Shown: one piece after another, positions 51,201 to 54,200 of the stretch
How positions within the stretch are numbered: position 1 is the stretch's first letter
Layout: every line of letters begins with the position of its first letter
Origin: Eledone cirrhosa
Taxonomy: Eukaryota
Length of the DNA: 64,000 nt
Direction: 5' to 3'
Assembly: GCA_964016885.1 (NCBI GenBank)
Contig: OZ024742.1
Span: 71,672,001-71,736,000, forward strand
The notes under the pieces: generated by a model
What the model was told of the DNA's origin: nothing
What the model saw: only the letters and a program-made list of their open reading frames with translations
Databases searched by the model: none
Position numbers and translations under genes: made by a program

Positions 51201-54200
51201 ATGACAGATCGTAGTACTCTGTCAGAGGCCTTCTCTACATCAACAAAAGCTAGCTGTAGCGGCTTACTCTGAGCTAGGAACTTCTTTTGTAGCTGTCTCA
51301 CGAAGGAGAGGGCATCTGTCATACTGATTTTCCTGTTTTTTCTTTTGTCTTGTACTGGCACAAAACCAAACTGCATCTTTTCTAGTTTGACTCTTTCTCT
51401 AATTAGTTTTGCTAGAACGTTTTCTGTCACTTTCATAAGTTGGCCCATTAGTTTCATGCCCCTGCAGTTGCTCCTTCCTGGTCCATCACCTTTTCCCTTG
51501 TAGCAATTAATGATTATACTGCTACACCAGACATTGGGTATGACTCCCTCCTGTATTACCTGATTAACTTGCAGATTAGTTCAGTTCCTACTTCCCCAGA
51601 CACGTTCAGCATCTCGGTGACAATCTCTGATGGTCCAGTGGCTTTACCATTCTTCATTGCTTCTTTGACGCTATAACTGTCTATTTCGATAGCTGATCCA
51701 TCTGTTGGGTCAGTTGGGGGTAGTCTTCCTTCTTCTCACTCATTCTTAACATTCATCAATCTTTTGTAGCAGCATTTCCAGGCCTCTTTCTTTTGGGAAG
51801 CAGTGATGCTAAGCACACCGGCTCATTTCAAACACATTTTTCCTCAACAACATCCTGATTCACATTTACACACTGCCTTGCAATACAGAACACCCTCTTC
51901 TCTGATCCTCATGTCACAAGATATTGGCAAACCTTTTTTCATGCTATGTATGCCTGCCATCTAGCTTCTCACATAGCTACCTGGTACCAGTCTCTGCTAG
52001 TCCATTTTTCCAGTCTTTCCACACCTGTCTCTTGGCCTTAATGGCTCTATCTACTGTGCTCTTCAACCATCAGGTCACCTTCTGTCTAGCTGGTGCTTTC
52101 CTTCAGCCACAAGTCTCATCAGTAGTCTGTAGTAGGTTGTCATGTAAGAACTTCCATTTGTCCTCTATGGCATATGTATCTAATTTATCTTCTCTCTCCT
52201 CATATGCATCACATAGAGCTTTAACTGAAAGGTCCTTTAGCTTCCACACTTTCCTCCTCCAAATTTTCCTGTTTTTTCTTTTGTCTTGTACTTATTCTGA
52301 TGCCACTAATAACTAACTTGTGTTGGGCAGTGCATTCTTCTCTGGAAAAGGACTTAACATTCATAACCATCTGTCTATTCCATTTTCTAACTAGTAAGAA
52401 GTCAATCTGGCTTGTGTGTTTATGAGATTGGTAGGTGATCATTTGGCTGGCAGGTTTCCTGAAATTAGTGTTACAAATCGTTACTTCATTTGTCTCACAG
52501 AATTCCAGGAGCCTCATTCTCTCTTCATTTCTTGAGCCATAACCATAGCCACCGTGTCCTTTGGTATAGCCATTCTGGTGCTGTCCAACATGTCCATTGA
52601 AGTCTTCATCAAAGATGATTAGGTCCTTGCCATCTGCCTCTGCAGTTACCTGTAAAGTTCCTCATAGAAACAGTCCTTATGTTCTTTACTCAGTCCAGCT
52701 AGGCAGAGATAATTGTGATCATTCTATTGCTTATGACCATTATAACCTTGATAATTCTATCACTTAAATTAACTACCTCTATTACCTTATTTATCCATTT
52801 CTCAGCTAGTAGAATGTCTGCCCACCTACTCCATCATCATTTCCTACTCAGCTTTTAACCATGTTGTTTGTCTGTGAGTAGTATTGCTGAGGCACCCCTC
52901 TATCTCTCTTGAACACAGCATATATCCACTCGTCTCCTCTCAAGCAACTCCACAATTTCTCGAGATCTATCTCTCAATGTACCCACATTAAAAATGGCAG
53001 CCCAGAGGTGTGTTATCTAACAGTAGTGATTAGATCCTTTAGTGGTGGTTCTTTGTACCTGGAATAATTGTGTATAATTGCTTGATTACAGTAAGGGGAT
53101 TCTCACACATGGCTAGGTGAGGAATCCCACAACCATTCACCAATATATATATATATGTTTATCCCGGGTTCATCGGGGGTAAACACAGTAAGTAAGGTAC
53201 TCATTACATAGCAGAGTATAAATATTCAATTTAGAAATGGCTTCTACAAGACTAGAACTGTTTCATTCAGGAGAAATCATCAGGAAGCCAACTGTCCAAG
53301 TAATATGATGGTATTTATTCATTTTCTGGTGGTAGGAGAGGGTAGTGATTGGGATGGGTGAAGGTCATTGGTTTATGGATTTAAAGAAAAGGGAATTCTT
53401 TAAAAACTATATTTAAAGTAACAAAGGCATATATATATATATATAAACAAGAAGTGTAAATCAACAGGGTAAAATTAGCTTCATTTATTCATATTCGCTG
53501 CTATATATATTTCAGTGATAACCATTATTCAACAGCTATGACCTCATCAGGCAGTAAGAACTTGAACAGAATAAACAAGAAAACATGATTTTACCTTGTT
53601 AATCCATTGATATGTTCAGATTCAGAGTGTGGTGTTAGTCCTCTAAGGAACTGAAAGTATATCATATGATAAGGAACTGAAAAGCATATCATATGATATG
53701 CTTTTAGTTCCTTAGAGGACTAACACCAAACTCTGGATCTGAACATAAAATCTATTACAACATTATGTTTTCCATGTTTTGCGGTGGATTGGCAGTATCG
53801 ATAGAGGGTCGGACGCCATGCTTTCCAGCATAGTTACGTCCCTTTACGATCTGAGTTCAAATCCTGCCGAGGTTGACTTTGCCTTTCATCCTTACGGGGT
53901 CGATAAAATAAAGTACCAGTAATGCACTGGGTAATTGCTGGCCTTGTGCCTAAAGTAGAAACAATTATGTTTTCCTGTTTTTTCTGTTCAAATTCTTACT
54001 GCCTGATGAGGTCATAGCTGTTGAATAATGGGTATCACTGAAATATATATAGCAGCGAATATGAATAAACAAAGTTAACTTGTTGACTTACACTTCTTGG
54101 TTTTACATTACTCCAGAGTAAACAGACCAACTTGCATACTGAAGTGTTGGTAAACAACCAACACATACTCAAAATATTATATATATATATATATGTGAAT

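Follow-up and report, generated by a model that had tools for sequence, protein, structure and literature searches.

Two hammerhead ribozyme motifs of opposite polarity, carried on inverted arms within an intron of a receptor phosphatase gene, raise the question of whether the hairpin formed by these arms serves the host transcript or is simply what a mobile element has left behind. The hairpin lies within a 64,000-nt stretch of the Eledone cirrhosa genome (contig OZ024742.1; hereafter, the window), in an intron of ~20 kb whose acceptor is 3.9 kb further downstream. On the + strand, exon 58079-58214 takes up the coding of a PTP99A-like protein at the residue where exon 37765-37914 leaves off, in agreement with the placement in a PTP intron proposed by the first-pass annotation. 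That annotation further suggested that the hairpin arose by snap-back reverse transcription from its apex, and that each ribozyme is masked by its antisense copy, protecting the host pre-mRNA from cleavage unless the duplex is opened, for example by A-to-I editing. The data presented below point instead to a pair of head-to-head, 5'-truncated pseudo-LTRs that very probably derive from a high-copy Penelope-like retrotransposon (PLE) of the Hydra clade, flanked by (TA)n, intronic, and likely decaying neutrally.

Structure and authenticity of the inverted-arm element

Comparison of the window with itself reveals two principal inverted arm pairs, 53472-53590/53963-54081 (119 nt, 92%) and 53611-53671/53687-53747 (61 nt, 93%), and a further inverted match at 53439-53472/54075-54108 (Table 1). 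At the apex, GCATATCATATGATATGC begins at 53684 and is accompanied by a tandem duplication with a spacing of 27, so that both the palindrome and the adjacent duplication noticed at first pass are found in the sequence; the apex sits on the main 5' truncation site of the family, a natural CATATG. While the arms of the reported ~650-bp hairpin are real, the element is larger (53446-54177), as the right arm continues through a tail to the (TA)n tract. This tail sequence is also found just upstream of the ORF in long copies of the family. The left arm carries a 12-nt internal deletion, and the right arm has lost 19 nt and 26 nt and is split by an insert (53781-53968) which we take to be a member of a SINE family, the 18/19-nt duplication on either side of it (53762-53780 and 53964-53981) bearing out the earlier description of a SINE with target site duplication. 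The two arms differ at 19/191 positions and share no variants (background, 8.9 per 100), and are thus diverged as much as random copies; accordingly, nothing maintains the duplex.

Table 1. Positions of the features discussed, numbered along the window.
Feature	Position	Strand	Remarks
Host intron, PTP99A-like receptor phosphatase gene	37915..58078	+	Donor position approximate
(TA)n target tract, left flank	53429..53445	.	From sequence; (TA)n abuts 56/68 family arms with a defined terminus
Left arm, 5'-truncated pseudo-LTR	53446..53692	-	Short 3' end of the family, tail absent
Type I hammerhead motif	53498..53554	-	Core intact; predicted cut 53502/53501
27-nt tandem duplication	53654..53707	.	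Overlaps apex; same at locus L072
18-bp palindromic apex	53684..53701	.	Head-to-head junction
Right arm, 5'-truncated pseudo-LTR with tail	53693..54177	+	Split by SINE
SINE, inserted later, very high-copy	53781..53968	+	Ends loose, very high depth
Type I hammerhead motif	53999..54055	+	Host sense strand; core intact; predicted cut 54051/54052
Tail, one-sided 3' extension of right arm	54103..54177	+	
(TA)n target tract, right flank	54178..54194	.	
Separate hammerhead-like family, ORF-less	54196..54714	-	~313-nt unit

As far as testable, an assembly artefact is contradicted by two lines of evidence, in keeping with the earlier argument against a chimeric read. Specifically, an 89-nt short-read contig corresponding to 53631-53719 spans the duplication and apex with zero differences (the contigs stem from four runs of unspecified kind in one study, and could come from the sample used for the assembly), and an identical junction occurs at another locus. 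A pattern search placed the exact window apex at two genomic positions; since the reversed-pattern control likewise gave two matches, this count is no evidence in itself, and it is a 250-nt alignment with locus L072 that establishes the relationship. L072 (G000:C3:68014122-68014400) lies 3.7 Mb from the window in unrelated (TA)n flanks and contains the same apex and 27-nt duplication, a left arm that reaches the short end, and just 36 nt of the other arm, its hammerhead being broken by a deletion. Presence of the same complex apex at two loci indicates that it was copied at one of them rather than made twice, and the 16/191 sites at which L072 and the window left arm differ indicate that this event is old. 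The junction would have been copied to or from L072, unless both loci drew on a common source, and a read-through RNA is the likely intermediate.

Hammerhead motifs and their conservation

A generic motif scan of the window yielded four candidates, of which the two hammerheads in the arms are the only clear ones. Each has the CUGANGA, GAAA, and UH core and helices I-III of a type I hammerhead, with CTGATGA at 54003 (+) and 53550 (-), GAAA at 54040, a CTGC/GCAG stem I, and a palindromic stem III, ATATATAT. The claim of one complete hammerhead per strand therefore stands with respect to the cores, stem I, and stem III, but not with respect to stem II, which is imperfect, with a G:U pair at 10.1-11.1, a C x C mismatch found across the family, and a G x G mismatch private to the + copy. 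Rfam hammerhead models, named at first pass as a check, gave no match in the whole window at gathering score or in 53300-54300 at E<=10. Matches to Rfam miRNA models were rejected as generic hairpin similarity, far below gathering.

Similarly to the minimal hammerheads described for PLEs (PMC4209133), those of the window belong to type I and have a long helix II, a short helix I, and a small palindromic helix III, and the two lie about 450 bp apart on opposite strands, compared with 100-700 bp in that report. They differ from the published motifs in having no extra base between 9 and 10.1, in the G10.1:U11.1 pair, and in the internal C x C mismatch of helix II. In long copies such hammerheads are linked to ORFs with reverse transcriptase (RT) and GIY-YIG motifs, as anticipated at first pass for hammerheads of the PLE pseudo-LTR kind. 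Each window arm carries a hammerhead because every pseudo-LTR in this family includes the motif, and since the core is intact in 36/57 sampled arms, the presence of two intact cores in the window is unremarkable.

Whether copies keep the core depends upon the level of comparison. A sister subfamily has the core and stems I and III in common with the subfamily of the window, with N7 variable; stem II shows one two-sided change (U-A to C-G), several one-sided changes, and changes in loop length. In the hammerhead alignment 97% of cells are paired, with one compensatory pair, and the covariation score, which reflects this single pair among related sequences, was reached by 6/500 shuffles. As the hammerhead is kept across subfamilies whose upstream flanks do not align, these comparisons suggest that the ribozyme has been selected in active element lineages, and not at the window locus. 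Inside the subfamily, the core is substituted about as often as other parts of the arm (28/708 within the core versus 347/8560 outside; Fisher p=1.0), and single copies decay neutrally.

A regulatory role in the host transcript

Could the hairpin nonetheless have been retained because it gives the PTP99A-like pre-mRNA a ribozyme switch that masks itself and is gated by editing? Cephalopods edit their RNA heavily from A to I, and the + hammerhead has an intact core, lies on the host sense strand, and is covered by a predicted duplex: in the predicted fold of either transcript, 56/57 ribozyme nucleotides are paired over long range. The arms would thus pair as the first-pass annotation supposed; the protective or editing-gated role attached to that pairing is unsupported. 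Most copies have no antisense arm (30/55 are single-armed), and the window arms, 10% apart, show neither shared nor compensating changes. The element has suffered three deletions, a SINE insertion, and a stem II mismatch, and an equally intact core in 36/57 arms makes its intactness here expected. Among copies, A>G changes are not in excess of T>C changes (1.41 vs 1.56%). Even when the other arm is left out, the hammerhead is not the preferred predicted fold of the monomer, lying 3.8-5.1 kcal/mol above the best fold in predictions that omit tertiary terms. Single minimal hammerheads of PLEs are reported not to cleave, and dimers to cleave at low levels (PMC4209133), while PLE hammerhead cleavage elsewhere is described as protein-assisted and dispensable for insertion (PMC11167929). 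Retention as a switch is therefore very unlikely; pairing of the arms in the host pre-mRNA, as modeled, is likely incidental, and a role in the host gene improbable.

A probable Hydra-clade Penelope-like parent family

The arm is represented in the genome by 2181 first-look candidates, 40 of which were scored (88-92% identity), and 65 arms differ on average by 5.5% from their majority. Some copies extend upstream into a decayed ORF. In the long copies of the window's subfamily that end in the arm (L032, L031/L014, L050), a single ORF, broken in all of them, combines putative RT and C-terminal GIY-YIG motifs beside the pseudo-LTR. The order in L032, a copy of about 4.1 kb, is tail sequence, ORF, 3' UTR, and the same pseudo-LTR. 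A related hammerhead arm is found at 18 of 20 loci picked by RT sequence, and at 12 of the 20 such an arm lies inverted upstream of the ORF. As in PLEs, therefore, pseudo-LTR sequence occurs on both sides of the ORF and/or as an inverted 5' copy (L032; 12/20), and a tail is found at one end only (13/14 complete pairs).

The motif set defined for the Hydra clade (PMC8557442, section 11) was recovered across 21 ORF loci: using relaxed patterns, RW[KRN] and DK[TI] were each present in 18, RT motif A in 20, YRDD-like in 13, GIY..YIG in 13, and C[KN]LC in 19, and the CNC-x5-C linker occurs in at least eight, the raw count of 20 being inflated by microsatellites. One Cys lies between GIY and YIG in the family ORFs. 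The family thus resembles Hydra-clade PLEs (PMC8557442) in its C-terminal GIY-YIG, RWK, DKT, CxCX5C linker, CxxC and CxH around the conserved E/N of the endonuclease, and lack of CCHH, as well as in its (TA)n target (56/68 termini), pseudo-LTR hammerhead, inverted 5'-truncated copy, and one-sided tail. It differs from them in tail length (about 95 nt vs 30-40 bp), in the absence of any ORF from the window copy, and in the length of its long copies, L032 reaching about 4.1 kb whereas Hydra-clade elements are generally under 3 kb, a figure given as a tendency rather than as diagnostic (PMC8557442). The Neptune clade was considered and rejected, as the motif list of the same source points to Hydra. 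Pfam GIY-YIG matches to the family ORFs (E=0.002-0.003) are below cut-off, five fragments of the family's own ORF gave no Pfam RT match, and a PDB search with the family ORF found no relative; RT identity is thus a probable assignment, drawn from motifs and from homologues with weak RVT_1 matches.

Two other classes of element merit comparison. Non-LTR retrozymes (bioRxiv 10.64898/2026.07.22.740005) and the window element are alike in being non-coding, PLE-related, and equipped with a type I hammerhead. Retrozymes, however, are direct tandem units, each with a hammerhead, in ORF-less families, whereas the window element is the terminal part of a PLE that bears an ORF, and a retrozyme assignment was rejected. 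Inverted arms, TA flanks, and high copy number would also suit a MITE or other DNA transposon with long terminal inverted repeats, were it not that 30/55 loci have one arm only, that junctions vary, and that the ends are asymmetric; linkage of the arm to the 3' end of an RT-encoding element refutes this assignment, the probability of which is negligible.

The best protein matches come from octopods, and the present data add a Hydra-clade family with a hammerhead to an octopod genome. PLEs are listed for an octopus in PMC13282606, where the portion consulted makes no mention of ribozymes. A literature search of main texts found no octopod PLE hammerheads, although supplementary files S1 and S2 of PMC8557442 may cover this family. 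Separately, another PLE-like family, Asn-rich and with Hydra-like motifs, is nested beside the L032 copy (L032:95-1164, -), and in L055 (oriented 149-1634) RT and GIY-YIG-like motifs of yet another type occur within an open frame of 495 aa.

Origin of the head-to-head arrangement

An inverted layout, a palindromic junction, and a one-sided tail are already known for PLEs. In Adineta vaga, Penelope pseudo-LTRs are joined head to head with junction palindromes of 18 bp and 38 bp and an optional tail on one arm (PMC3846280), as in the window; those elements belong to another clade, and the present family differs in that a junction is seen at two loci and in that (TA)n makes a target site duplication indiscernible. 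How PLE tandem and inverted structures form is named as open (PMC8557442; PMC3846280), and a literature search confined to main texts and largely to open-access papers found no application of twin priming to PLEs. With thousands of short copies and two fixed 3' ends, the present family allows twin priming and snap-back to be separated by counting; while the locus itself is ordinary repeat debris, the family offers useful data on the mechanism of PLE integration.

Head-to-head pairs were found in 10/29 other top copies and in 25/55 distinct loci, the remaining 30 being single-armed (eleven duplicates were removed, and the second set is enriched by apex queries). Across the family, 3' ends form two clusters, with a separation of about 95 nt, and 5' ends cluster at the natural CATATG, where a perfect apex is present in six loci. 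The 14 pairs with both termini defined comprise 13 short+tail pairs, one short+short pair, and no tail+tail pair. Eight of the 25 pairs are clearly non-nested, a count that excludes L001 and L010, flagged by script with a difference of just 11 nt. The short priming site is where the tail arms of L027 and L093 break off, and the short end also terminates single-arm copies (6/30), indicating that it can be a priming site. Partner arms share 0.89-1.4 variants per 100 nt, as compared with 0.40 in random pairs. At L074 (1484-1959), the arms are identical over 128 nt with 12 shared differences from the family, reflecting either recent insertion of a copy whose source was divergent or conversion of one arm by the other.

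We infer that the inverted layout is an integration by-product, with twin priming somewhat the likeliest route, ahead of pure snap-back. The element endonuclease would nick both strands of the (TA)n target, and each target end would prime a cDNA, of which one would start from the tail end and the other from the short end ~95 nt upstream. The two cDNAs would then be joined at their 3' ends by microhomology, here around the natural CATATG palindrome, and the SINE insertion and deletions would be later events. Two target-primed cDNAs joined in this way would yield the short+tail pairs and non-nested arms that are seen; these, with the microhomology joints, are the support for twin priming, and the neighboring ORF-less family obeys the same short+tail rule. 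In vitro, reverse transcription of an anole PLE starts at two sites, and both strands of the target are cut and extended (PMC11167929). As a general proposal for PLEs, that head-to-head pseudo-LTRs are made by twin priming from two tail-defining RT start sites rather than by self-priming, and that finished junctions can be retrotransposed, is tentative, with a probability a little short of even. Twin priming is familiar from L1, in which cDNAs from two target ends are joined head to head by microhomology. L1 arms are non-overlapping, whereas most arms in this family overlap, such that strand displacement or two RNAs would be needed.

That the second arm arose by snap-back, or self-priming, of one cDNA of the same element, and that resolution by the endonuclease fixed the short end, a scheme put forward for other PLEs, is a serious and only slightly less probable alternative. 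Zero-loop fold-back is sterically awkward, and the predicted nesting is contradicted by 8/25 two-arm loci, although later deletions at an unstable palindrome, or copies of one junction, may account for these. Snap-back has in its favor the nested window arms, the perfect CATATG apex in six loci, the identical arms of L074, and several pairs in which one arm ends mid-element; variant sharing between partners slightly above random also fits, as any one-template model would predict. It is, moreover, the published reading of such junctions (PMC3846280; on the tail, PMC8557442). Against it stand the use of the short end by single-arm copies and the sharing of the window apex with L072. Nested arms in the window are equally compatible with both routes. 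The snap-back origin proposed at first pass thus agrees with the published reading and the local nesting, but its apex occurs at two loci, and the geometry of the family fits twin priming at least equally well.

The neighboring hammerhead-like family and other features of the intron

The same (TA)n tract borders a second element, on the - strand, consisting of a partial tandem plus an inverted arm with a hammerhead-like core at 54363 (-). Its unit of about 313 nt comprises a 277-nt body and a 36-nt tail, and 3123 first-look candidates were found in the genome. Copies examined in the window and at L103-L112 form a permuted partial tandem in (TA)n, with tail before body in 9/10 loci; 6/10 loci have two arms, of which one ends in the tail and the other at the short end, one end having been fixed by the query. 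No similarity was detected between this family and the ORF loci examined. It stands nearer to non-LTR retrozymes than does the hairpin element, and is a candidate retrozyme-like, non-autonomous PLE.

Elsewhere in the window, a large satellite array lies on either side of the small PTP exon 37765-37914, the two differing in the sign of their strand skew (24000-46400; GC skew about -0.93, then +0.67). The same intron also contains non-LTR retrotransposon remnants at 46984-48800 (+) and 54923-56206 (+), with RVT_1 matches of E=2e-6 and 9e-28, respectively, the latter within a 427-aa open frame.
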